Positions 16,818 through 56,459 of a DNA stretch of 64,000 nucleotides are shown piece by piece. Location: IMG/VR virus record IMGVR_UViG_3300024259_000011. One strand, written 5' to 3'. Position 1 is the first letter of the stretch. Each line of letters begins with the position of its first letter. A program made the position numbers and the translations under genes. The stretch comes from a virus (lineage: Duplodnaviria > Caudoviricetes). The notes beneath the pieces were generated by a model. It worked only from the letters and a program-made list of their open reading frames with translations, had not been told where the DNA came from and ran no database searches.

Positions 16818-16829
16818 TTATAAATAGTT
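16818..16829 (-). promoter_or_regulatory. late-type promoter motif AACTATTTATAA
   Basis: One of about 11 ACTAHTTAH-like motifs upstream of gene starts (see findings). Confidence 0.6.
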
Positions 16830-19978: not shown

Positions 19979-20007
19979 GCGTATCTCCTCCCTTTATAAA
20001 TATTGGT

Positions 20008-40576: not shown

Positions 40577-42328
40577 CTATGAGCTTGAACCTGACTCGCC
40601 GAGCAAGCCACGAACGACAACTAGACCGTACATATCAGGACGCACCATCTTCTTAGCGTAGCGTGTCATGACACCCTTGCGTGGCACGAAGTCCTCGACA
40701 CCAAAGATGGTGGGAGTGACTTGCAGTGGCACATAAGGTGCGTACACATATCCGCTTTCGAGGAAGCTTCCGCCCTTGCGTCCAACCAGAACAAGATTCC
40801 GTGGGAAGTAAGGATCAACATAAACGTCCCACTTCTTGGAAATACTTCCTGTTTGAACAGCACCGACAGTACCCTTGGAATCTTCCATGGATACCTTAGC
40901 ACGGAATCCACTGGTGAACTCAAGGATGTTGGCAACTTCTGGTCCGCAGACAAGGAAGTTAGCACCACCACGCAGAGTCTTGCGATGGATCTGGGCTGAA
41001 ATGTCATTGATGGTTTCGATCAGAGTCTCATACCATTCGCTGACTGTGCCCGTGAAGTCTGGAGCCTTAGTAGCGGCGCCGAGTTCGGCACCGGTGGTTC
41101 GCTTCACGAACAGACCCGGGGAGCGTGACCAGTAATAAGTACCGGCGGTTGCGCCCTTGATAAGATCTTCAACGATCTCACGGTCGATCTCAAGAGCAAT
41201 CTGCTCAGAGAGAATTGAGGTAAGCTCGACCTCGGCATCCAGATTGTGATAGGCATTTAGATCCTGTCCCAATTCTGGAGTCCACTTAGCCTTGAGCTTC
41301 TTGGTTACGGCAGTGACACTGACGGAATCAACTTTGATGTCGATCTCGGCAATACCCTCGTTTGCTTCCAGTCCCCAATCATCAGTTCCGACGACAGCGC
41401 CGAGAGCCTGATTAGAACCTGCAGCGGCAGTACCAGTGAAATCATCAACCAATGGGTGATAAATAATGGTAGATGCGTCACCGGCTCCAACACCAACAAC
41501 GCTGCTGAACGAGCCTGTAGCGTGGATAACAACTTCCAGAATAGATCCGGATGCCTTGGTGAGACGACGTACCGGTGTTGATCCAGAAGGATCAGACCGT
41601 GAGGCGCCATCGGCGCCAATATCGACGTTGAGAGCAACGGGGTTCTGGTTACTGCCGTCAAGACCCATCACCTGACGCTGGGCGTCGGTAAGGGTAATGT
41701 GCAGAACCTGCGCGTATGAACCTGATGCGAGATCAGGATCGAAACGAAGGTACTTATCAGTGCCGGCAGAATTGCCAACCATGAATACACCTTCACCGGA
41801 ATCCGCTACCGTCGTATAAGCAAGCGTGAGCGAGCCAGTCGGAGAAGAAGATCCGTTGTTTAGGGCGTAGAAAGATTTCTCGCCGTGACGACTTGTGCCG
41901 TCATCATCGACGGAAACACCGCCGGTGATCTCTTGACCCACCACATTGCCACCGTAAAGTGACTCGGCTGCTGCAGCGTTAAGCTTAGCATTCGTGTGTT
42001 GGAAGTCGAGGAAAAAGATAAGTCCACTTGGTAGACTCATCGGTTGAACTGACACTAGGTCGTTCGCGATGAGGGCACCGAATACGCGACGAACGATGGG
42101 GAATGCAACAGCGGCAAATCCTTCAACGTCACCACCAGCCATGGTGGATGCCTCACGAAGTAGTTCTCTAGCTTGGTTCTCAAGTAGTCGAGCCATGGTA
42201 TCACGCTTCCGACTATTCTCAAGACCTTCTAGAAGACCTGTGCGCTCCCACTTATCCATAAGTGCGGCGCCTTCCTTCGACACATCGCGAGTAACGATAC
42301 CTTCAGTCAATTTGTTAATAATAGACAT
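40577..42328 (-). CDS. major capsid protein (T4 gp23-like)
   Basis: KWERTGLLEGL, PIVRRVFG.LIANDLVSVQPMSLPSGLIF, KLKAKWTPE.GQDL.AYH.LDAE.ELT, YAPYVPL, GVMTRYA. Confidence 0.96.
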   Translation of the reverse strand: MSIINKLTEGIVTRDVSKEGAALMDKWERTGLLEGLENSRKRDTMARLLENQARELLREASTMAGGDVEGFAAVAFPIVRRVFGALIANDLVSVQPMSLPSGLIFFLDFQHTNAKLNAAAAESLYGGNVVGQEITGGVSVDDDGTSRHGEKSFYALNNGSSSPTGSLTLAYTTVADSGEGVFMVGNSAGTDKYLRFDPDLASGSYAQVLHITLTDAQRQVMGLDGSNQNPVALNVDIGADGASRSDPSGSTPVRRLTKASGSILEVVIHATGSFSSVVGVGAGDASTIIYHPLVDDFTGTAAAGSNQALGAVVGTDDWGLEANEGIAEIDIKVDSVSVTAVTKKLKAKWTPELGQDLNAYHNLDAEVELTSILSEQIALEIDREIVEDLIKGATAGTYYWSRSPGLFVKRTTGAELGAATKAPDFTGTVSEWYETLIETINDISAQIHRKTLRGGANFLVCGPEVANILEFTSGFRAKVSMEDSKGTVGAVQTGSISKKWDVYVDPYFPRNLVLVGRKGGSFLESGYVYAPYVPLQVTPTIFGVEDFVPRKGVMTRYAKKMVRPDMYGLVVVRGLLGESGSSS

Positions 42329-43481: not shown

Positions 43482-46400
43482 CTATCCACAGTGATAGGTG
43501 CAAGGAACAAGCGCAGATTTGAACCCTAACTCAGAATCAACGTCAACGGTAGAAAAGTCAATCGGCGTCGTAGCCTTTGCAACAGTATAGTTATGTAACA
43601 AGTCATCATCTTGTAGCATGCCATGCCCAGCCCTATCGCTTGAGCAAATATAATCGCCAGTTTCAATGTTACCGTTTTGATCTGTGACAAGTACCTGACC
43701 TTCCCCGAGGGCATTATACACATGCTGGTCTTCGCCCATATAGGAATCTTCTGCAGGGACATTAAACCCGCGATAAACGCCAACTACAGCTTTATCTTTA
43801 GCAGCGGTTGTCACCTGAGTGGAAACCCATGCGTTGGACAAGCCGCCATCGAAAGCCAGTTGTCCCGTAGAGGCAATAATTACACCCTCTTGTAAGGCAG
43901 AGCCTGATGGAAGGGGTGTTGGATGCTGCCCTGTGAACGTGCTGTAAGCCACCTCTGAGTTAATCGTACCCACGGTGGCGCCGGTAGTTGAATCAAAAAA
44001 CTTAATCCAGTAGTTACTGACGCCGAACGTTGAGTCAGCAGAACGGATGTTAACAATAGTATCGGAGGTCGCCAGACTGGTATCGGTATTCGAGATACGC
44101 AACGTACCTTCGCTGCGTGCAATAGGATCTACAATGTGGAACTTGGCATCTGGCGACGTGGTGCCAACACCAACAAACGGGTATGCACTGTTTGCCACAG
44201 AGCCGTCAATACACAGACCGTCGTACAGGGATGTAGAGGCGTCACGACCGACTTGGAACCTCATTTTGGTGCCGAGAGAAGCGCCAATGTTCCAGTATGT
44301 CTCTGCAGTTTCGACAATCATCGTGGCTGCGAGGGCTGAGTTGGCTTCGCCGTCGTCTTCTGTACCATAGAAGCGCAGGGCACCAATATTATCGCCCGAT
44401 GCCATCGAGTCACCTCTACCATAGAAGTCAACACTAGACTGACCGGCATCTGATACAAGCTTGAGTTGGGCAGCGTCGGCGGTATGGATTGTAACGTCCG
44501 CAGTGATCTCAGCTAGATAATCGATGTTATCGTCGGTGCCGAAGGAAATCATGGTGTTGCCGACAGGATTCCTAATATTGCCGCCGCCTAAATATAGATC
44601 GCCATCAACCTTTAGATTTCCGCTCTCATAAATCGTGCCGCCGCCGGAACCAGAGCCTGCGAAGAAGTGTACTGCGTTTGTAGTTGTCTCATCCAGCGTC
44701 AGCATTGTGATGCCGCCACAAACAAGGTCAATCTGATCAGTGGTAAAGTTCATCCCTGTGTTTGTATCACCATTATGGGTGACACCGTTGGAGGCATAAA
44801 GTGTATTGGCGGTGATATCAGCGTTGGAGACTGTAACATCACCGTAGAAAGTCGCTTCTTTTGCAGAGTCGATCATGAGCGCTGTACTCAAAGATGTGGC
44901 ACCGTCTGCAGTTGTAAAGAACAATAACCTTCCCGCAGTACTGGAACCGTCAGACCATGACGCTTCATCAACTTCAGCCATAATACCGGCTGCGGGATAG
45001 TAAGTTCCATCCTCGGTTTCCGCGCCTTTGAACTGAATGATTCCCAAGTTGTCGCCATCGGCAAACGAACCGTCAGTATAACGTCGGAAATCCAGTTGCG
45101 CATCATCTGCAGAAGTTCCGTCGCGACTGGCAAGAATCAGTGTTCCCTGATCAGTGGTGCCGGGTCTAATAAGAATCGAACCTTCGCTGTGATCGTATGT
45201 AACGGTGTCTCCACCGAGATGAATGTCACCGGTGCCGCCATCAACTTTGAACGAGCCAGAAGCTACCGATGTCTCTACTCGGAAGTTTACGTCTGCTCCA
45301 GCTTCATTGAATGTTGCGTGACCGTTGGCGGTGATTCCGCCGGCAAGTGTAGAAGAACCTGAAACCTTGAGTAGACCAGATGTTCTGAACTCCGTAGATG
45401 TATAGTGATTGTCGGAACCGGACATGTCTGGTGTAGTACCATCAGACCATGCAACCTTCCCGCCGAGAGCATCCCATGAAAGGACTTGTCCATCGGTCGG
45501 AGTGTCGTCACCAATCTTAGTAACCTTTCCGTTCTTGCCCAAGGTGATCGCAGTGTCAGCACCAGCGCCATCATTAACCTGTAGGTTCACGGTGCCGGCA
45601 TTTGTGTCAACATTAAAGACAATGCCGGCGCCATCCATTGTCAGTGTGCCGCCGAGGTGGGCGCCGCCGAGAGCACTCAAAGTGCTTGAGGCTGAGAGAG
45701 TGGTGCTTGTGAGCCCTGCTTCATGGGCAGTAGCGCTAGTAAAGTTTGAAGGACCGCTGACCTCAAATGAGCCGGTAACTTGATGGGTGTCAGCGGGATT
45801 ATTTCCAAGAACCGCGTTGCCGGTAGCAGTGAGCAAACCATAAACAAAAAGCGGACCCTCTGCATTAACGACACTAGTGAAGTTTGAAGGACCGCTGACC
45901 TCAAATGAGCCTGTTACCTGATGGGTGTCACCGCTGGCGTTACCAAGGACCGCGCCGCCGGTAGCGGTGAGCAGACCGTCAATCTGGGCTGTGCTAGCAG
46001 CGGTCAAAGCACCATCAACGTTAAACGCAGCTTCGGCATGAACCTCATCTGTAAAGTGAGCAGGTCCGCTTACTTCAAGAGAGCCTGTTACCTGATGTGT
46101 ATCACCCGAAGCGGCGCCATGGATCGTGGCACCCTGAACAGTTAGGCTCTTCAAAGTCACCAATCCTGCAGAATTGATCTCTAGATCATTGACCGATTCA
46201 AACGCCGCATCAGTATTAATAGCAAAGACATCTCCGCTATCATCGATGCCCATGATGCTCTTAAGGGTGGAGTGTCCGAAGGTGATAGTTCTGTCTGTGC
46301 CATCGGCGTCGGCGCCAACAGTAATATCGCCGCCGCCAACAGATAAGGCGCCGCCTAAGGTTACTAATCCTGCAGCGTTGATCTCCAAGTCATTGACCGA

Positions 46401-48800
46401 TTCAAACGCCGCATCAGTATTAATAGCAAAGACATCTCCGCTATCGTCAACGCCTATAACACTCTTGAGAGTGGAGTGCCCAAAGGTGATAGTTCTGTCT
46501 GCGCCATCAGCATCACCGCCGATCACCGCGTTGCTGGTAGCAGTGAGCAAGCCATCAACGTTAAGCGCAGCTTCGGCATGAACCTCATCTGTAAAGTGAG
46601 CAGGTCCGCTTACTTCAAGAGAGCCTGTAACCTGATGTGTGTCCTCGGCGGTTGAACCAAGCACGCTTGAGCCAGAAGTGTTGAGCGCCCACGTATACAT
46701 GTGAGAGGTAAAGATGCTGCTCTGGGTATCGACACCGCCTGAACCGGTAATCGTATTATAGAATGTAACAACGTCTGTTGGTCCATTACCTAATCTTGCG
46801 TGCCCGTCTGCGCTGAAGATACCTTCTGCGTGAACTTCGCTAGAAAAGTGTGCTGGTCCGCTGACTTCAAATGAGCCTGTTACCTGATGGCTAGTAGCAC
46901 CAACATCGCCCAAGATGGTTGAACCTGAAACGTATAGATAACCGGAAGTCTCAAATCCTGTTGGCGAGTATATTCTTGGCGTAGCGCCATCACTGGAAGA
47001 AGCGTAGTTTGACCTGTCAACTGTGACGCCGTATGCGGTACCAGAGACATAAAGATCATTTGTATAAAGATGCTCGACCTTCACATCATGGGAAGCAGTC
47101 ATGCCGCCAGTGAGTGTGATTGCCGGTGTTGAGCCAGAGTTAGATATCGACAACGTAGTAAGACCGGGACGTGCTCCGTCACCGATGTTGTGGATGGAAA
47201 GGGAGCCAGAGAATTCAGCATTGTTGCCTACAAACTTGGCTGCATGAATCTCGCCTGAACCAGATACTGGTCCGAGAGTACCTGAAATGTGTACCATTTC
47301 TGCGGGACCGCTGCCTGATGCTGCAGCTTGAACATGGAAAACCTTATCGTTTGTGTCACCGTCTACAATGAAGTCAACGTCTGCGTTGCCGCTGTTGATC
47401 TTAACGAAGTCTTGGGTGCCGTCTTCGGTCATGTTGATCATTCTTACGTTACCGGCGCGAATGTCAATTGAATCGTCGGCGAAGATGATTTTAGTATCAG
47501 AGTCGCCGATGTGACTGATGGTAGCCGCGACGAGAAGTTCGCCAGAAACAACAGCGTCGGTGCTTACTTCAAGAGAGCCTGTGATTTCCACGGCGCCATC
47601 GCTGCCGATCTCGACGCGCTTGGAGAGGCTTGTGCTTCCGTCTGGAGTTGTCCAGAAACTGAGGTTTCCTGCCGCGCTGCTGCCATCAGTCCAAGCGGCT
47701 TCGTCAACTCGGGCGGCGATTGCTGCACCAGCATAATATGTTCCGGTTTCAGTCTCCGCGCCTCTGAAGTAGATTTCTCCTAAGTAATCACCTTCAGCAA
47801 GCGTGCCATCGGTGTAGTGTTGGAAGTCCATCTGCGGAGCGTCTGCCGCTGTGGTGTCGCGACTTTGAAGGACGAGCCTACCTTTATTAGATGTGCCCGG
47901 GCGGATACGAAGCACTCCGTCGCCGTCGAAGCTGAAAGCATCTCCTTGGATATGTACCATATCGGAACCGGCATCCACAAAAATCGAGCCCGTCTGGTTG
48001 TCACTCTCTACTCGGAAGTCTACGTCAGCGCCACCCTCGTTGAAGACGGTAATATCTTGTGAGCCATCTTCTGTGATTTTGATGAAGTCAACGCCGCCTG
48101 CTTGAATATTAATATCATCGGCTTGGAATCGAATGAATGTGTTTAGATCGCCTTGGTGGTAAATATATTCTGAAGCTTGAACGGCTGCTGAGAATACGGC
48201 AGTGTTGCTTACTTCAAATGAGCCTGTAATCTGGTGGGTCGTATTGGCGTCGGCACCTTTGATACTTGAACCGGATACACGCAAGTCATTGAGAATGGCT
48301 TTATTAACGTGGACATCGCCATCGCCGGTCACGTTGCCCCCAGCAGCATCAGCCGCACCGGTGATAGTATGGTGGAACGTCATGTAATCGCCAAAGCTGG
48401 ATGAGCTTTGAACGTGCAGCGCCTCAGAACCTGATATTTCGCGGGACACCCAGAGACTACCGCTTGTCATGTGCTGGTCGTCGTTTGAGTTACCGAAAGT
48501 CGTCGAGCCGGAATGGGCAATCTGCGTGGAGGTGATCTCTCGAATCGTATAGTTGTCCGCATAGATCGTACCGGACACGTATAAGGCACCGGTAACAGTG
48601 AGAACACTGCCGGAACCGGGACCACCTTGGTTTGTTAAATCGTTTGGTTGAAAAGTAAGGTCGTTAGAACCGGAGAACTTTCCCGGGATAAGACTGTCCG
48701 CGCCGTAGCGGAACTGTACTGAAGTCTCAGGACCATCGGCAGATGCGGATGCGCGCTGTGGGTCGATATACGCCCAGCCATAATCATCGGGTGGAGCCAC
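43482..48800 (-). CDS. long repeat-rich fibre protein (1772 aa) with C-terminal intramolecular chaperone/autoproteolytic-like domain
   Basis: Six HQ[IV]TGS[FL]EVS repeats, three copies of a roughly 95-aa module, C-terminus STFTGQH...NALGEGQV.V...GDYICSS...QDDDLLHNYTVAKAT...CTYHCG. Confidence 0.8.
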   Translation of the reverse strand: MAPPDDYGWAYIDPQRASASADGPETSVQFRYGADSLIPGKFSGSNDLTFQPNDLTNQGGPGSGSVLTVTGALYVSGTIYADNYTIREITSTQIAHSGSTTFGNSNDDQHMTSGSLWVSREISGSEALHVQSSSSFGDYMTFHHTITGAADAAGGNVTGDGDVHVNKAILNDLRVSGSSIKGADANTTHQITGSFEVSNTAVFSAAVQASEYIYHQGDLNTFIRFQADDINIQAGGVDFIKITEDGSQDITVFNEGGADVDFRVESDNQTGSIFVDAGSDMVHIQGDAFSFDGDGVLRIRPGTSNKGRLVLQSRDTTAADAPQMDFQHYTDGTLAEGDYLGEIYFRGAETETGTYYAGAAIAARVDEAAWTDGSSAAGNLSFWTTPDGSTSLSKRVEIGSDGAVEITGSLEVSTDAVVSGELLVAATISHIGDSDTKIIFADDSIDIRAGNVRMINMTEDGTQDFVKINSGNADVDFIVDGDTNDKVFHVQAAASGSGPAEMVHISGTLGPVSGSGEIHAAKFVGNNAEFSGSLSIHNIGDGARPGLTTLSISNSGSTPAITLTGGMTASHDVKVEHLYTNDLYVSGTAYGVTVDRSNYASSSDGATPRIYSPTGFETSGYLYVSGSTILGDVGATSHQVTGSFEVSGPAHFSSEVHAEGIFSADGHARLGNGPTDVVTFYNTITGSGGVDTQSSIFTSHMYTWALNTSGSSVLGSTAEDTHQVTGSLEVSGPAHFTDEVHAEAALNVDGLLTATSNAVIGGDADGADRTITFGHSTLKSVIGVDDSGDVFAINTDAAFESVNDLEINAAGLVTLGGALSVGGGDITVGADADGTDRTITFGHSTLKSIMGIDDSGDVFAINTDAAFESVNDLEINSAGLVTLKSLTVQGATIHGAASGDTHQVTGSLEVSGPAHFTDEVHAEAAFNVDGALTAASTAQIDGLLTATGGAVLGNASGDTHQVTGSFEVSGPSNFTSVVNAEGPLFVYGLLTATGNAVLGNNPADTHQVTGSFEVSGPSNFTSATAHEAGLTSTTLSASSTLSALGGAHLGGTLTMDGAGIVFNVDTNAGTVNLQVNDGAGADTAITLGKNGKVTKIGDDTPTDGQVLSWDALGGKVAWSDGTTPDMSGSDNHYTSTEFRTSGLLKVSGSSTLAGGITANGHATFNEAGADVNFRVETSVASGSFKVDGGTGDIHLGGDTVTYDHSEGSILIRPGTTDQGTLILASRDGTSADDAQLDFRRYTDGSFADGDNLGIIQFKGAETEDGTYYPAAGIMAEVDEASWSDGSSTAGRLLFFTTADGATSLSTALMIDSAKEATFYGDVTVSNADITANTLYASNGVTHNGDTNTGMNFTTDQIDLVCGGITMLTLDETTTNAVHFFAGSGSGGGTIYESGNLKVDGDLYLGGGNIRNPVGNTMISFGTDDNIDYLAEITADVTIHTADAAQLKLVSDAGQSSVDFYGRGDSMASGDNIGALRFYGTEDDGEANSALAATMIVETAETYWNIGASLGTKMRFQVGRDASTSLYDGLCIDGSVANSAYPFVGVGTTSPDAKFHIVDPIARSEGTLRISNTDTSLATSDTIVNIRSADSTFGVSNYWIKFFDSTTGATVGTINSEVAYSTFTGQHPTPLPSGSALQEGVIIASTGQLAFDGGLSNAWVSTQVTTAAKDKAVVGVYRGFNVPAEDSYMGEDQHVYNALGEGQVLVTDQNGNIETGDYICSSDRAGHGMLQDDDLLHNYTVAKATTPIDFSTVDVDSELGFKSALVPCTYHCG
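46026..46628. repeat. nested DNA duplications inside the long fibre gene
   Basis: 63-nt identical copies at 46026 and 46566 (540 nt apart); 56-nt identical copies at 46186 and 46390 (204 nt apart). Confidence 0.85.
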
Positions 48801-49167
48801 TAGTGTTTCCCCCCTTCGCTCTCTGTCGGCGTAACTTGCTTTGGCGCTTGAGGCGAGCTTCTTTCTTACGCTCTGCCTTCTTCCTTAGCCTTTCAGCCTC
48901 GCGGATAGAGGCGGCACGTTTAATTCTTTTCGCTTCGGAGGGTTTCGTATAATATTGTCTTTCGCGGATCTCTTCAACAATGCGTTCTTTTTTACACTTG
49001 CGTATAAATCTCTTGATTGCTTTTTCGATTGGTTCGTTTTTTCGAGGCACAACAGTAACGTTCGCCTGCACGGGCGGACCCGGCGCATACTCTCGCTCTC
49101 GTTGGCGATTATTATTACGTCTCCGACCATTGTTTTTATTGTAATTGTTGTTTCTACGAAACGCCAT
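48784..49167 (-). CDS. rpsU: ribosomal protein bS21 with basic N- and C-terminal extensions
   Basis: VTVVPRKNEPIEKAIKRFIRKCKKERIVEEIRERQYYTKPSEAKR matches the bS21 consensus (E..E.AL.RF.R...K.G...E.R.R..YEKPS). Confidence 0.88.
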   Translation of the reverse strand: MAFRRNNNYNKNNGRRRNNNRQREREYAPGPPVQANVTVVPRKNEPIEKAIKRFIRKCKKERIVEEIRERQYYTKPSEAKRIKRAASIREAERLRKKAERKKEARLKRQSKLRRQRAKGGNTSGSTR

Positions 49168-49178
49168 CTGTGTACCTA

Positions 49179-49634
49179 CTATGCATCAGTGCCGGCAGGT
49201 GCCTCAGTCAAACCAGAGCCGGTTAGAGCATACATTCTGCCAACTGGAATTCCCGTGAGTTCTGCGAACACCCTATAATGTGCCGTACTGCTTCCCGGGT
49301 TAGAAACATAAATCTCAGTACACTTGCAGTTTAATTCTAGGACCGCTTGTGAACCAGATACTGGGTGAACCTCAAGCATGTGTTGACCGCCATAGCCGCT
49401 AGCCAAGCCGCCGGCGACATCGCCAGCAGAACCGGTAGAGTTGAAATGCACGTTCAATGTTTGTGCCGAGTAATTGTAAATTGTAACTTTTTTTGCAACC
49501 CACGGAAACTGATAACATACCTCGTTATCTGCTGGGTGCGAGTCTGAGCCTGAAACCCAAGGATCACCGGAGACTCTGTATGAGCCAACGTTGTGAAGTC
49601 CTACTCCGTAGTTGAATGAGCTATTGTCTGCCAT
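49179..49634 (-). CDS. hypothetical protein, likely virion-associated
   Basis: 151-aa beta-rich ORF behind an ACTATTTAT motif and GGAAAGGA SD. Confidence 0.65.
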   Translation of the reverse strand: MADNSSFNYGVGLHNVGSYRVSGDPWVSGSDSHPADNEVCYQFPWVAKKVTIYNYSAQTLNVHFNSTGSAGDVAGGLASGYGGQHMLEVHPVSGSQAVLELNCKCTEIYVSNPGSSTAHYRVFAELTGIPVGRMYALTGSGLTEAPAGTDA

Positions 49635-49669
49635 TTTTTATATTCCTTTCCTTCGATAAATAGTATTGA

Positions 49670-50089
49670 CTAAATGAATTTGCCCCAAGAGTCGCCTGCA
49701 ATATTTAAGATTCCATCAATATTAACACCCGGGTCGTTTGGAGCTATGCCACCAAGAGGGCTCCCGGGCTTGGGTTCTCCGGACGGAGCGGTGGTATTAG
49801 CCATCGCTTCTGTTCCTTCAAAAATGTTAACACCGCCGTAGGCATCCTTGTTGATTGACTCAATAAGATCCTGTCGCGCCTGAACTCGACCCGGGCTTGG
49901 TGCCGGATAGGGTTTTTGTGGTGGCTTGGTAGTAGAGGCAGCTTTCTGCTCTACCAATGAGGACGCGCCAGTAAGCCCCTGTGCAACCTCAGAGATAATA
50001 CCAGACAAAACCCCATCTTCAAACATGACTTCTTTAATGCATTCTTTGATCAGGGGTTTGAGCACAGCCTTTAGTTCGGCTTTGTTCAT
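49670..50089 (-). CDS. hypothetical protein (LKPLIKECIKEV N-terminus)
   Basis: 139-aa ORF in the head module with SD. Confidence 0.65.
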   Translation of the reverse strand: MNKAELKAVLKPLIKECIKEVMFEDGVLSGIISEVAQGLTGASSLVEQKAASTTKPPQKPYPAPSPGRVQARQDLIESINKDAYGGVNIFEGTEAMANTTAPSGEPKPGSPLGGIAPNDPGVNIDGILNIAGDSWGKFI

Positions 50090-50090
50090 A

Positions 50091-50465
50091 TTACTCCCCT
50101 TCAGGTGCCGGAAGCGGAGCTTCCTCGTTTCCAGCGACTTTAACGCCCATCTCTTGAGCCAGTGCCAGCATCATTTCAGAAGGAGACATGCCAAGTGCCT
50201 CGGACGCTGCGTCCAAAACAGGTGTCGCTTCGCCTTCGCCCCTTGCAGCAACTCTGCCGCCAACGGTAGCGCGTTGATATGCGGGTCGTTCTCTGTGAGA
50301 TCCGTGTCTGCCTCCGGGCATGCCCATTCCGCCAAGACCAATCTCTTCGATCTTCTCGTCGTCATCGGCACCCTCAGTGGTGACTTCTTCCTCGTCCTCT
50401 TCGTTCATAACTGACTCTAGTTCCTCAAGGATAATAGCCTTGAGCCTTGCCTTAGTGATTTTCAT
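50091..50465 (-). CDS. acidic hypothetical protein (MKITKARLKAIILEEL leader), possible internal head protein
   Basis: Follows the prohead protease gene; N-terminal basic helix ending in I-L-E-E. Confidence 0.65.
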   Translation of the reverse strand: MKITKARLKAIILEELESVMNEEDEEEVTTEGADDDEKIEEIGLGGMGMPGGRHGSHRERPAYQRATVGGRVAARGEGEATPVLDAASEALGMSPSEMMLALAQEMGVKVAGNEEAPLPAPEGE

Positions 50466-50471
50466 TTCGTT

Positions 50472-51080
50472 TTACTCCTCAACGATTTCATTTAATAAGC
50501 GGTTAATCTTGTCCGCTTTAGTAAGAATGTTTGGTTCTTCATAACTCTTGCCTTCACTTAGTCCCATGAAGGCGTCGGGAGTTGAGGGCTCTGATACAAA
50601 GTCAAAGCAGATTAATTGAAAATCATCTTCGACCATGGTGCGCCCTTGCGACTCACTGACCGAACCCAGCCCGCGAGAAGAAATCCCCAACTTGACACCA
50701 TCATTAACAAGCTCTCGTAAGATCTTGCCCGATGGTGTACCTAAAATTTTGACCTTTCCCATAACCGAAGGTCCGTCCCACCACACATCAGTGACCATGT
50801 GGGAGGCGTTCTTAAGGTTAATAACAGAATCCTCAGGGTGGTCTAGTTCCCCAAGGGCTCTTTTCTCTTTTACCAACTTCTGGTAATTCTTCATCTCTCT
50901 TTCTAGGATTCTCCTAGGATAGACACGTCCATTACCATTCTGAACATCTGCTTCTTGCAGCTTGCCAGAGAGCATCATACCGCCATTTCCGATATAGATC
51001 TTCTCCTCTTCCGTCAGGAGATCCTGACAGACGCCGCCTTCGCATAGTTCATAATATTCTCGTAAAAGTATTTTCTTCAT
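50472..51080 (-). CDS. prohead protease (T4 gp21-like)
   Basis: QNGNGRVYP, ALGELDHP, KNASH, GTPSG, GISSRGLGS, FDFVSEPSTPDAF. Confidence 0.93.
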   Translation of the reverse strand: MKKILLREYYELCEGGVCQDLLTEEEKIYIGNGGMMLSGKLQEADVQNGNGRVYPRRILEREMKNYQKLVKEKRALGELDHPEDSVINLKNASHMVTDVWWDGPSVMGKVKILGTPSGKILRELVNDGVKLGISSRGLGSVSESQGRTMVEDDFQLICFDFVSEPSTPDAFMGLSEGKSYEEPNILTKADKINRLLNEIVEE

Positions 51081-52076: not shown

Positions 52077-52891
52077 TAGCTGTTAATCTCCGCTGCTAGT
52101 TCTTGAATCTTCATGATTTGCATGAGCATATCACGGTCGATCTGGCGTTGTGAAAAGCCGTTCAAGGTTGCCATGACCTTATTTGTCTTGGCAAGCATTT
52201 TGGTGTCGCCGGAGATCTCATTAAGTGAGCGTGAGTCGCCCACAACATTCTTAAGCCTAGCTAACTCTTCGTTCAAGAACATCTTAAGCGCAACACCATT
52301 GTCAGAGAACGAAACAATGTATGCGCTCAGCAGATTGTTCTGCTCAACGCGCAATGTTTGCGAATACTGATCATTAAACTTCTTCACGAAGGTCTGATAA
52401 ACAATATTATCAATTGGTTTTGTATTCTCAGTCAGTGCTTCGACTGAAGAATTCATTTTGCTCAGAACCTTGTTCTCTAAGAGGGTACGCCTCTTGATAG
52501 TGGTTCTTGTATCAAAGATCTGTGCGATAGTCGCAAGGTCTTTGTAGTTAGGCACAAACGTAGTAAACGTGTCCTTGCCCAGTTCTCTGTTGATGGTGCC
52601 AATAAGCTGCGACTGCTGCTCAAACGCCTCTTCTTGATTCAAAGCGCTGTAAACTCGCTTGACTTCCAAAAGAAGCTTCTCTGCAGTCATCTCATTGACA
52701 TCCGTAGTCTCGTATAGGGTTCTGTAGAGTTCAAGTTCAAGCCCCAGAGTTGTATCACGCCTAAAGAACTCTTTCATGATGGATACTATCTTTCGTTTCC
52801 GAACAACATCCTTGTTCACTACGCTGATGGTTAATTCTCTCACTAACGTTTCATATAAAAACGCTGTATTTCTTTTTTTGTTATGCTTCAT
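52076..52891 (-). CDS. helical hypothetical protein downstream of portal
   Basis: Likely start MKHNKKRNTAFLYE at 52891. Confidence 0.7.
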   Translation of the reverse strand: MKHNKKRNTAFLYETLVRELTISVVNKDVVRKRKIVSIMKEFFRRDTTLGLELELYRTLYETTDVNEMTAEKLLLEVKRVYSALNQEEAFEQQSQLIGTINRELGKDTFTTFVPNYKDLATIAQIFDTRTTIKRRTLLENKVLSKMNSSVEALTENTKPIDNIVYQTFVKKFNDQYSQTLRVEQNNLLSAYIVSFSDNGVALKMFLNEELARLKNVVGDSRSLNEISGDTKMLAKTNKVMATLNGFSQRQIDRDMLMQIMKIQELAAEINS

Positions 52892-54854
52892 TCTTTTTTG
52901 ACTCCAATCTCTGCAAGCTCTCAATCAAATGTTGAGTTTCGGAATGGCTGGCTTGAACTTTTCGTTCTTCGGTGTAATTAGGTTCGACATTCTCCGAAAG
53001 CCCATTTCCAAGTCGTGTCAGGTCACTCATTCCTTTAAAAATGTTTCTTGTTGAGTTGCTGGCAATCGACATACCCGAATCTGCATGGTAACTGCGCTTT
53101 CTTGCGCCGGCTCCACGGGAGTCACTAGCAACAGGGTAATATACCTTGCCCTTAGAGCCCGGTGTAACGTATCCTCCGTCATCACGGTGTCCCGGTGCCG
53201 CCAATAGCGCGGTTTCTTCTTCTTCACCGCCCATCTCTTCGCCACCTTCTTCACCGCCGAGGTCCATTTCCTCGCCTTCCATGTCGCCGCCAAGGTCACC
53301 GCCTAGATCACCTAAGCCGCCCTCTTCTCCGCCTAGTTCGCCGCCTAGTTCGCCACCAAGACCGCCGGCGGCGTCATCCTCAGCGGGAGGTTCGGCTGCA
53401 GCCTCAAGCATCGCCTGCATCTTCTTATCATAGAACATTTCACGCTGGTTACGCAAGAATTCTTCGTCAGACATGCCAAGTAAGTTCTCGGAGACCCAAC
53501 GCCGGCTGAAAAAGCCTTCGGTTGCCGCCGATGCAACATCAAACTTGGTCCTCCAGTGTTCTAGTTCTTGCAACTCCGCAATCTTGGATGGATTATTAAG
53601 CTGGAGCTTGAAAGAAATGAGGTCATCGCCCCTGAACCCTAATGTGAACAAGTGAATGATGCCAACTTTCTCCAACTCGGAGATCATAGAGCGCTGCAGC
53701 CGAGTGATGGTGCGCGCAAAGCGGATATCCTTCTGTGCTAAAGTCGTCTTGTCTTCCTCACCGCCTTCGCCGCGTGAAAGATAGGACATTGGAATCTTTA
53801 GAGCAGAGAATAGCTTATCACGTAGGTACTTAACATCATCAATATCGCCAGTGTACGTTCCACCGGGCAAAGACTCAACTCGACTAGACTCTTGACCGCG
53901 AACAGGGATGAAGTAGTCTTCATCAATGCTCATTGGGTTATACCGAAGGTCTACTCGACCGGTGGTGGGGTCAACAACTTGGTTTCTCTTCATCTGAGTC
54001 GTGACTTTCTGCATAAACTGTTCTACATCGTGCGGAGGGATGTTACCAACGTCAATATAGAACACTCGGCGCTCTGGAGAGCGCACAATTCGGTATGCCA
54101 TCATCGCATCTTCAAGCAAAGTAAGCTGGCGCCAGATTCGGCGGGCTCCTTCAAGCACTGAAGTGCCATATGGGGCGAACTTATCATTGCCAAGGATACG
54201 GAAGTGTGCAACCTGCCAGTTTTCAAAGGTTAATCCACCCGAGTTCCACTGGTATTGTACATAATTGGGGTTGGTCTTGTCTTCACCTTCCAATCTTTCA
54301 AGCTCTTCCAGTGGAATGCCCACGGCGTTCTTGATTCCATGTGTCTCATCGATGTCCAAGTATAAAAAGTAGTCACCGAACTTACACATTGTACGGCACC
54401 AACCAAAAAGGTTAGAGTCTAGGTTCAGGATCTTATGGTATAGGTTGTCCAACACAACTTTAATCTCGTCGTTGGAGCAATTAATCTTCAGCAAGGGGCT
54501 GAGGATTGTGGAGGTGGTCATCTCATCTGCATAAATATCTAAAGCAGATGCAATCTCGGGCATGTACTCCATCTGATCAAAGTCAAGATAGCGCTCTTGA
54601 CGATTTTGGTTTGCCATCACTTGGGCGCTGAGGTTGTCGTACGGGTTGTAGGACGTTCTCTTAAAGTTCAAGCCGCCGGCAGACGTAAAGTTGAACTTGT
54701 CTAGCTGTGCGCGCCGATAGCGCCGCTGCATTTGCACGCGGCGATTAACAATCGGACCAGAGAGCAATCGAGTCAGGCGCTTGAACAGCGGCGACTCTGG
54801 ATTACGTGGATTTTTCAAGTTTGGATTTGATTTTTTGGAGTTTTGTTGAGCCAT
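52881..54854 (-). CDS. portal protein (T4 gp20-like)
   Basis: PEIASALDIYADE, KFGDYF, PYGTSVLE, LEDAMM.YRI.RSPERRVFYIDVGN, EDYFIP.RG, LPGG. Confidence 0.95.
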   Translation of the reverse strand: MAQQNSKKSNPNLKNPRNPESPLFKRLTRLLSGPIVNRRVQMQRRYRRAQLDKFNFTSAGGLNFKRTSYNPYDNLSAQVMANQNRQERYLDFDQMEYMPEIASALDIYADEMTTSTILSPLLKINCSNDEIKVVLDNLYHKILNLDSNLFGWCRTMCKFGDYFLYLDIDETHGIKNAVGIPLEELERLEGEDKTNPNYVQYQWNSGGLTFENWQVAHFRILGNDKFAPYGTSVLEGARRIWRQLTLLEDAMMAYRIVRSPERRVFYIDVGNIPPHDVEQFMQKVTTQMKRNQVVDPTTGRVDLRYNPMSIDEDYFIPVRGQESSRVESLPGGTYTGDIDDVKYLRDKLFSALKIPMSYLSRGEGGEEDKTTLAQKDIRFARTITRLQRSMISELEKVGIIHLFTLGFRGDDLISFKLQLNNPSKIAELQELEHWRTKFDVASAATEGFFSRRWVSENLLGMSDEEFLRNQREMFYDKKMQAMLEAAAEPPAEDDAAGGLGGELGGELGGEEGGLGDLGGDLGGDMEGEEMDLGGEEGGEEMGGEEEETALLAAPGHRDDGGYVTPGSKGKVYYPVASDSRGAGARKRSYHADSGMSIASNSTRNIFKGMSDLTRLGNGLSENVEPNYTEERKVQASHSETQHLIESLQRLESKKNEA

Positions 54855-54857
54855 TTG

Positions 54858-56459
54858 TTATCCTTTATAAAGCCATTTGTATTCTTCGTGTTCTTTTCTG
54901 ACAGCTTCTGATTGACTTTGTTTCATTGTATCAAAAGTTCCGCCTTTTTTATAACCTATTTGACCTTGCATCTTAGTTTCTAGTTTTGAGCCTGTTTTAA
55001 TCATGGCGCCTAAGCATGCTTTCTTGTATTCAATATTGCGCGCATTGGCTACAAACGCGGTGTCTCGGACCCAGCATGCGATTGCCAACGACATAACAAG
55101 GTCATCGTTGTAGCCCCTCATAGCCTGAGGCTTCCCATTGTTCCAAATAAAAGTCTCAAGCTCGCGCAAAGTCCTGCTCGAATATATTGTAATTAGTTTA
55201 TTCCTGATAAACTCTTCCAATTTTGCGACGATCAATGGTCTTGTCTTCATGGAAGTTGTGAAACCGGGTACGGAGTTGGACATTCCTTCAGCGATGTGTT
55301 GCTCCACGTAGTCGTGCGTGGACTTCACGGAGTGATAAACATTCGGATAAGATTTGTCGATTAGTTTCTCTAAAACAGAAAAACCAACGTTATTGTTCTC
55401 AACGACAATCATGCAGTTGCCATACTCTCTGCCGGCAGAATCCAATATTGTTGCGAACATATCGAGGCTGGGCTTTCCCTGATACTCAGCTATGATTTCT
55501 AGCGTTTCGAGTTTAACTATGTGAAACACAGAATAGTCTGCGCCGTCGCCGCGTGCAACATCAGCAACCAGAACATACGAGGCGCCGGGAAGGTGTTCTT
55601 CCCAGATCCAGTAGTTCCTGTCGAACCCCGTTCTATGTTTCGGATCGGATACAGTGTCACGGATACGGGCAATGTCCTCCGGGTGGATTACCGTATCCCC
55701 GGAAGTATTAAAGTTGCACTCGAACTCTTGAGAGATTTCTCGACGAGACATGTTCCTTGTTTCTTTCTCAAACCATTCCTGATCTCGATCAGGGTGCAGA
55801 TCCCACATAAGCTTAATAGGATTAAAGTCGTTCTCTCCCGCCTCCGCGTTTACATACTTTGTATGGAACCAGTTACCAACACCGTTGGGGGTAGACAGCG
55901 AGATAACTCGCCCACCAGTTGAAATCGTAGGGTATAGACCCATCCACAGTTCATCCAAGCCGTCAATATGAGCAGCCTCATCCAGCACCAAAAGAGACAG
56001 CGCCTCAGAACGACCGGCATCGCCAGAGGTTGAAGACGCTTTAATCTGTGAGCCATTGGTTAGCTCAAATGACGTGCGGTTGTCTACTTCGATAGAGGAG
56101 ATCTGAATAAAGTCCGGAAGCCCTCTCATCATCGCCTTGACTTTCTTGACCAAGTTTGCGGCAGTGCCGAACTTAGTAGCCATAACTAGGACGTTCTTAT
56201 CACGGTGGAACAACATCATCCAAACGATGTAAGCCGCTACGATGGTAGAGATCCCCATCTGGCGGGCTTTAAGAATCACATTAAATCTGTGATCGTTGAA
56301 AGCTACCAGCAAGTCTTGCTGGAAGTCGTATGTAGCGAACGGAATAAGACCGTGAATAGGGTGAGAGATTCTGCAGTAATTGTCAATAAAATAAACTGGG
56401 TCTTTACCGCTTTTTAAAATCTCTTTTACGCTTTCCTCTTTCGATAGTTTAAAAGCCAT
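54858..56459 (-). CDS. large terminase subunit (gp17-like)
   Basis: ILKARQMGIST, Walker B LLVLDEAAH, STPNG, QEFECNF, nuclease ADVARGDG.DYS, DDLVMSLA. Confidence 0.95.
   Translation of the reverse strand: MAFKLSKEESVKEILKSGKDPVYFIDNYCRISHPIHGLIPFATYDFQQDLLVAFNDHRFNVILKARQMGISTIVAAYIVWMMLFHRDKNVLVMATKFGTAANLVKKVKAMMRGLPDFIQISSIEVDNRTSFELTNGSQIKASSTSGDAGRSEALSLLVLDEAAHIDGLDELWMGLYPTISTGGRVISLSTPNGVGNWFHTKYVNAEAGENDFNPIKLMWDLHPDRDQEWFEKETRNMSRREISQEFECNFNTSGDTVIHPEDIARIRDTVSDPKHRTGFDRNYWIWEEHLPGASYVLVADVARGDGADYSVFHIVKLETLEIIAEYQGKPSLDMFATILDSAGREYGNCMIVVENNNVGFSVLEKLIDKSYPNVYHSVKSTHDYVEQHIAEGMSNSVPGFTTSMKTRPLIVAKLEEFIRNKLITIYSSRTLRELETFIWNNGKPQAMRGYNDDLVMSLAIACWVRDTAFVANARNIEYKKACLGAMIKTGSKLETKMQGQIGYKKGGTFDTMKQSQSEAVRKEHEEYKWLYKG

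Follow-up and report, generated by a model that had tools for sequence, protein, structure and literature searches.

A long bS21 gene in a marine phage

A 64,000-nucleotide (nt) stretch of DNA from an uncultured tailed phage (IMG/VR record IMGVR_UViG_3300024259_000011), referred to here as the window, carries a gene for ribosomal protein bS21 on its minus strand at 48784-49167. The open reading frame (ORF) comprises 127 codons plus a stop, starts with ATG, and was assigned from the ORF list, from profile matches (PF01165, TIGR00030 and phrog_21469) and from about 30 full-length homologues. The original prediction, made from the DNA letters alone, described a bS21 core with extensions at both ends, and such an ORF is indeed present and is recognised by three profile libraries. 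Pfam PF01165 (Ribosomal_S21) covers residues 38-89 with 56.2 bits (cut-off 27; E = 2.9e-15), the NCBIfam equivalog model TIGR00030 covers residues 38-92 with 46.1 bits (cut-off 28.95), and PHROG 21469 (‘ribosomal protein S21’) provides the third match. The bS21 signature, E-P-x-E/D..A-I/L-K/R-R-F..K-C-K..E..R..Y-x-K-P-S, is kept in columns that are invariant or nearly so in the homologue alignment, and it agrees residue by residue with chains of the Escherichia coli type.

Among solved structures the best matches to the window protein were gammaproteobacterial bS21 chains (E ∼ 4e-9), and the weakest was the Flavobacterium johnsoniae chain 7jil_z (E = 3e-4). These alignments start at chain residue 1-8 (at 2-8 for chains of the E. 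coli type), and the 24 distinct chains are all 51-88 residues long. An AlphaFold2 model built on the homologue alignment placed helices at residues 47-60, 63-71 and 78-119, which reproduces the two short helices and the long C-terminal helix of bS21; with a predicted template modelling score of 0.34, the model bears on local secondary structure only. The eight top Foldseek matches to this model were all ribosomal bS21 chains, though weak (E 0.06-0.7). The core of the window protein, supported by the profile matches, is taken as residues 36-92 (48892-49062, minus strand); it holds both short helices and the first part of the long one.

The protein departs from the usual bS21 in size, being 127 residues with a core that begins at residue 36, where 50-90 residues and a core near the N-terminus are the norm. 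The difference is one of architecture; homology to bS21 is unaffected. The whole polypeptide is very basic, with an isoelectric point (pI) of 11.6, 43 Lys and Arg against 13 Asp and Glu, and a net charge of about +30; beyond residue 73 it has neither Phe nor Tyr, and Trp is missing altogether. The gene thus encodes a true phage bS21, twice the normal length, in an uncultured marine relative of phage T4. The original prediction named bS21 as the commonest phage-encoded ribosomal protein, and the literature agrees, since bS21 accounts for 88% of the viral ribosomal proteins detected (PMC6375957). A phage bS21 gene beside head genes is already known, and the window gene is a well-supported long variant, not a new kind.

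The N-terminal arm is conserved as protein

The first extension comprises residues 1-35 (49063-49167, minus strand), which precede the point at which short homologues begin with M-A-x-N. An Arg/Asn-rich extension of about 30 residues had been foreseen; the homologue alignment shows 35, among them nine Arg or Lys and nine Asn. No other segment of this kind occurs in the six frames of the window. A search that covered 5.8 billion protein sequences recovered about 30 homologues of 122-127 residues, 63-90% identical to the window protein, all of which come from marine metagenomes and keep both extensions. In their alignment hardly any change is seen in the MAFRRNN start, in the PGP hinge ahead of the core or at the C-terminal end. 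The central part of the arm varies in sequence yet remains Arg/Asn-rich, and its length ranges from 32 to 35 residues by indels that are, without exception, in frame. The arm is predicted to be disordered (AlphaFold2 per-residue confidence, pLDDT, ∼ 50), and a search of the ESM Atlas with the arm gave no usable match.

Ratios of nonsynonymous to synonymous substitution rates (dN/dS) were obtained pairwise, by segment, from eight coding sequences. They were 0.1-0.4 for the arm, where synonymous sites were saturated, 0.02-0.2 for the core, and 0.16-0.6 for the C-terminal segment, where the synonymous rate (dS) was clearly lower than in the core. The ratio is below 1 in every segment, and as judged from these comparisons the arm is under purifying selection as protein.

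Long N-termini in databases must be treated with caution. An exhaustive HMMER search over 1.84 billion representatives returned 998 matches at E ≤ 1e-3, and most of the seemingly long N-termini among them were artefacts of gene calling, in which a canonical Met stands at the core and the sequence upstream is unbiased. If the window gene were another such case, its first 35 codons would be untranslated and the true start would lie internally, at the core; the ATG at 49167 is, moreover, preceded by only a weak Shine-Dalgarno (SD) sequence. We nevertheless regard this as extremely improbable. The family has no Met at the start of the core, GTG occurs there in some members only, and no internal start at this position is conserved among the homologues. 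The ATG and the first seven residues, in contrast, are conserved, and the ATG lies 11 nt behind the stop codon of the upstream gene, a spacing that suits coupled translation. Because some 30 homologues keep the extensions, with in-frame indels only, dN/dS below 1 and no conserved start at the core, the comparative evidence is that the extensions are translated.

The C-terminal extension has two parts

Beyond the profile match the window protein runs on for 35 residues, whereas the median for the 149 nearest cluster representatives is 14. Alignment with the 71-residue E. coli bS21 stops near residue 101-106. The AlphaFold2 model has a single helix over residues 78-119, with pLDDT values of 94-96 for residues 81-110, and the last eight residues are disordered. 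Residues 93-116 (48820-48891, minus strand) form a basic continuation of the C-terminal helix that, from the predicted helix and the alignment, reaches about 11 residues beyond that of E. coli bS21.

The remainder of the C-terminus, residues 117-127 plus the stop codon (48784-48819, minus strand), is dual-coded. The same nucleotides hold the SD sequence of the next gene, AAGGGGGG at 48809-48816, its GTG start at 48798-48800 and its first codons. That gene (43482-48800, minus strand) encodes a fibre-like protein of 1772 residues with no Pfam match, and it overlaps the bS21 gene by the 17 nt originally given, provided that it starts at the GTG at 48800. In the window and in six relatives the codons for the bS21 residues A-K-G-G read GC(G/C)-AAG-GG(A/G)-GG(A/C) and contain the SD of the fibre gene; within the K-G-G codons this is AAGGGGGG in the window, AAGGGAGG in five relatives and CAGGAGGA in locus L003. 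The last five or six bS21 residues, N/S-G-S-T-(T)-R, correspond to the fibre start region, whose conserved MAPP(P)DD codons are read in the other frame. The fibre gene starts with GTG in the window and with ATG at the same place in all six relatives, with overlaps of 14-20 nt. The SD and start changes that are specific to the window are silent in the bS21 frame (Gly and Ser).

Since the ribosome-binding site, start and first codons of the fibre gene encode the last 11 residues of bS21, both the conservation of this tail and its low dS are explained. The final 11-residue tail has probably arisen as a by-product of coupled translation. The Arg/Lys-rich C-terminal extension of the original prediction therefore stands for the roughly 11 additional basic helix residues, but its far end is a read-through of the fibre ribosome-binding site and start. 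Half of the C-terminal extension is thus accounted for by the gene overlap, and the other part is a modest gain in a region whose variability is on record (PMC9723584). Small phage genes that overlap a neighbour deserve a check, wherever their tails are conserved, for read-through of the ribosome-binding site of the next gene.

Two other features of this end were considered and rejected. A programmed frameshift into the fibre gene would draw on a run of six G residues that is present in the window only, the relatives being different here. An [S/T]-G-S sequon at the C-terminus was set aside in the same way: the SGS belongs to the dual-coded tail, and relatives read N-G-S.

The bS21 gene lies in the head-gene cluster

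As predicted, the gene lies inside the head cluster. The terminase, portal, protease and capsid genes around it are, like bS21 itself, on the minus strand. The large terminase gene (54858-56459) is followed by the portal gene (52881-54854), three small genes, and the prohead protease gene (50472-51080; PF03420, E = 1.8e-32; phrog_207). Two small genes, scaffold-like by synteny (50091-50465 and 49670-50089), lie between the protease gene and a gene for a 151-residue protein with no family match (49179-49634), which is conserved in related loci and whose stop codon is the one 11 nt ahead of the bS21 ATG. Downstream of bS21 and the fibre-like gene are a gene for a 341-residue protein and, at the end of the head module, the gene for the major capsid protein of the gp23 type (40577-42328; PF07068, E = 2.9e-73; phrog_138).

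No terminator-like site was found on the coding strand from 49634 to 47389, a segment that takes in the 151-residue protein gene, bS21 and the fibre start. Given the shared strand and the lack of a terminator-like site between bS21 and its neighbours, late co-expression of bS21 with the head genes is plausible. The association of phage bS21 genes with adjoining head genes and late transcription, cited in the original prediction, has also been reported in the literature (PMC9723584). A CTATTTAT motif at 49656-49663 (minus strand), 29 nt upstream of the 151-residue protein gene, is a candidate late-promoter-like site and may serve as the promoter of a transcript spanning that gene, bS21 and the fibre gene. 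The general form of the motif, [CA]TATTTAT, has nine copies on the coding strand of the window (at 49656-49663, 19996-20003, 16820-16827 and six other places) and none on the other strand, and three of the copies stand 25-29 nt ahead of start codons. It differs from the T4 motif, TATAAATA.

Some neighbouring genes vary among relatives. Some loci (L064:8257-10329; L066:6343-8264) carry the 151-residue protein gene in three or four diverged copies, arranged in tandem. The window portal (52881-54854) matches those of L003-L009 only to residue ∼ 480-490, after which several relatives have about 500 nt that are unmatched; the C-terminal region of the portal appears, from these alignments, to be variable in the clade of the window.

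Related phages share the slot and differ in the arm

A scan of IMG/VR found 333 stretches that encode relatives of the window protein, and the 80 best of these whose flanking DNA sufficed were compared; the gene context of metagenomic homologues was thus read from IMG/VR loci. Nearly all of these 80 share the terminase-to-capsid module with bS21, and the bS21 gene directly follows either the gene for a 139-residue scaffold-like protein or the 151-residue protein gene. The annotated RpsU (75 residues) of Microcystis phage Mel-JY01 occupies the same slot in a phage whose capsid protein is only 34% identical, and in the 484-kb uncultured phage LR756508 a bS21-like ORF lies ∼ 2.3 kb upstream of the capsid gene. 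Flavobacterium phage immuto, which is nearer by its capsid, has none. In the phage collection, neither tblastn with the window bS21 nor megablast with 12 kb gave a match. From these comparisons, the head-module position of bS21 is old and widespread.

A fixed slot between scaffold and capsid genes, kept across phages with capsid identities of only 34-38%, might suggest that this bS21 works away from the ribosome, either in head assembly or as a very basic DNA-binding protein packaged in the head after the manner of the T4 internal proteins. Its high pI and charge and its place within the late head operon would suit such a role. Strong purifying selection, however, maintains the bS21 signature of the core, the protein lacks Trp as well as the N-terminal tag proposed as the capsid-targeting signal of this phage, and a related phage bS21 does enter ribosomes (PMC6375957). 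In addition, in another marine phage group (L088-L091; G+C content 0.38) an arm-bearing bS21 of 105 residues lies outside any structural module, near endolysin, exonuclease and dehydrogenase genes and with no head gene. The arm of this group starts M-A-Y-N/D-R. Because an arm-bearing bS21 occurs away from head genes in a different phage group, the arm appears to travel with bS21 and not with head assembly, and a packaged or assembly role is quite improbable. The representative L088:6001-6318 (IMG/VR 3300027791_001659), with a His/Asn/Lys-rich arm and an MAYNR start, lies between a gene for an unknown 127-residue protein and the exonuclease gene, with endolysin and ferredoxin-oxidoreductase-like genes nearby.

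Most bS21 proteins in the 80 loci have 63-93 residues and start with M-A-x-N at the core. Basic N-terminal arms occur in the subclade of the window (L001-L006 and L083); arms of ∼ 34-40 residues with an MAYKRN-like start are found in L007-L009 and L013, shorter basic arms in L026 and L058, and one that starts MRRNYNRRRR in L092. In a tree of the prohead protease all arm-bearing loci fall in one half of 30 rows (SH-aLRT 92). The 151-residue protein gene precedes bS21 in most arm-bearing loci and follows it in most short-form loci; a link between arm and gene order was nevertheless rejected, since L092, the exception, has an arm together with the order scaffold-like gene, bS21, 151-residue protein gene.

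In the sister of the window's subclade, L018:5590-6135 (IMG/VR 3300048878_000266), the bS21 protein has 170 residues, with 11 ahead of the core and a C-terminal extension of 100 residues made of GPNRN(N/D)R-type Arg/Asn/Pro repeats. Proteins P0061 and P0136 share this layout, with Arg/Asn-rich repeats at the C-terminus. The L018 repeats resemble the arm of the window protein in their odd composition, though they stand at the opposite end of the protein.

Beyond these loci, about ten of the clusters (at 50% identity) among the HMMER matches have true basic arms with the start M-[AS]-[FY]-x-R; all come from marine metagenomes, on contigs of up to 180 kb, and none bears a cellular name. The extensions had been singled out as the unusual part of the gene, and no basic N-terminal arm could be traced to a cellular genome among the solved chains, the HMMER clusters and their sources; all such arms that turned up are in marine viral or metagenomic sequences. 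For 176 genomes of one phylum, stop-to-stop frame lengths of cellular bS21 were also obtained, which give upper bounds only for N-terminal length. A scan of species-genome contigs gave two loci, one on a contig of the window's phage type and the other an unrelated short bS21. The former (L083/L086, PBHR01000019.1) is a 19-kb contig in a metagenome-assembled genome labelled Methanobacteriota archaeon SP3024; it carries protease, scaffold-like genes, the 151-residue protein gene, a long bS21 and the fibre gene, and it holds the only bS21 match of that genome. A binning error is the simplest explanation for this phage contig.

These patterns bear on whether the extensions do anything. They might be largely neutral baggage on a protein that works as a short bS21, the arm being a tolerated low-complexity expansion and the C-terminal tail an effect of the overlap. 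The last 11 residues are indeed fully accounted for by the downstream ribosome-binding site and start, and the arm is predicted to be disordered, varies in length by indels, and is missing from most relatives. Set against this are the dN/dS values of the arm in the face of saturated synonymous sites, and the near invariance of the MAFRRNN start and PGP hinge in homologues down to 63% identity. Basic arms of the M-[AS]-[FY]-x-R type, moreover, recur in the other clusters and in the different phage group, and the sister lineage has an Arg/Asn-rich arm of its own at the opposite end. Neutrality is therefore a possibility to be kept in mind but not a likely one.

Comparison with characterised bS21 proteins

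The E. coli bS21 (71 residues) aligns its core to window residues 40-101, and its C-terminal helix lies near the SD helix (Watson et al. 2020, PMC7550191). It has no N-terminal arm, unlike the window protein, and ends in an RLY motif that contacts h37 and A1167, whereas the window bS21 lacks RLY and has a helix longer by the basic residues described above.

Freshwater phages of up to 331 kb with predicted Bacteroidetes hosts carry bS21 within a terminase/portal/protease/capsid block, with late co-expression reported, and their bS21 C-termini are divergent yet conserved within clades (PMC9723584). The position in the head block is common to those phages and to the window phage. Several features differ. 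The bS21 genes of Chen et al. (2022) are encoded antiparallel to the head genes, whereas the window gene is on the same strand, close behind its neighbour and overlapping the next gene. An N-terminal arm is not described there (PMC9723584). Where F. johnsoniae has Tyr54, which stacks on the anti-SD, those proteins keep an aromatic residue; the window protein has none beyond residue 73. The heavy SD use of the window phage, furthermore, is at odds with Bacteroidetes, which are known to use SD sites sparingly.

The cultured 190-kb phage Mel-JY01 (PP395634) has the same order of protease, small scaffold-like gene, bS21 and capsid on one strand, but its RpsU has only about 13 residues ahead of the core and no basic arm. 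Pelagibacter phage HTVC008M is a marine myophage with its own bS21, the only phage bS21 shown to enter ribosomes, those of E. coli (Mizuno et al. 2019, PMC6375957); no extensions are reported for it, unlike the window protein, and the pelagimyophage bS21 gene is described as lying outside any gene cluster (PMC7029224).

Outside the bS21 family, a formal parallel to the arm exists. The lambda N protein has a short, disordered, Arg-rich N-terminal arm that acts as an RNA-binding peptide. The likeness to the window arm is one of composition only, with no sequence homology, and is offered as an analogy and not as membership. No cognate RNA hairpin for an Arg-rich arm was found in the inspected leaders of the window.

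A proposed role on the host ribosome

On the platform of the 30S subunit bS21 is placed with its N-terminal helix over the anti-SD (PMC9723584), and the C-terminal helix of the E. coli protein follows the SD helix in the direction of the 30S head (PMC7550191). The HTVC008M protein has been found to enter E. coli ribosomes (PMC6375957). Against this background we think it rather probable that the window gene supplies, from a late operon, a phage bS21 that joins the host 30S subunit and brings with it an arm, a longer helix and a tail derived from coupling. In the late phase the phage protein would join the platform at the usual bS21 site, which adjoins the anti-SD tail and the mRNA exit, either by replacing the host bS21 or by entering newly made subunits. 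The disordered Arg/Asn-rich arm would start from the helix over the anti-SD and would be placed to touch mRNA leaders or the 3′ tail of 16S rRNA. The additional basic residues would lengthen the C-terminal helix at the SD region and may contact RNA, and the final tail stems from the frame running over the fibre SD, start codon and first codons.

Several observations weigh against this proposal. Ribosomes with the HTVC008M bS21 are only ∼ 5% active in E. coli in vitro (PMC6375957), and incorporation need not mean productive translation. The arm is a low-complexity, indel-rich segment; on the protease tree its gain and loss require at least four changes, though a single origin is also possible, and a weakly constrained appendage would be expected to behave in the same way. 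The AlphaFold2 model is silent on the ribosome-bound state, and the host is uncultured.

The use of SD sites also fails to set the long variant apart. SD sequences are frequent in the genes of the window, as had been noted: they stand at 3-12 nt from 29 of 54 crude starts, compared with 9% at random positions. When conserved head genes with starts fixed by homology were compared, an SD preceded 72% of them where bS21 has an N-terminal arm and 63% where it is short, the arm-bearing loci being somewhat richer in G+C (0.47 versus 0.41). SD richness is thus real but is not specific to the extended bS21 variant, and the suggestion that the long protein is tied to a bias in SD use finds no comparative support. 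This absence of a link between arm and SD use also fits the neutral account of the extensions. When the late leaders were inspected by eye for a shared hairpin or motif to which an Arg-rich arm might bind, nothing came up beyond SD sites, A-rich stretches and the CTATTTAT motif.

A further step would take the Arg/Asn-rich arm to be a portable RNA-binding module, N-terminal in the window protein and C-terminal in the sister lineage, such that 30S subunits carrying it would favour the late mRNAs of the phage. We consider this extension of the proposed role on the 30S subunit unlikely. If it were true, a virus-made ribosomal protein would have gained a new working part that alters which messages the ribosome picks. 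The short, N-arm and C-arm forms of bS21, encoded in phages that are otherwise syntenic, provide a natural comparison set.

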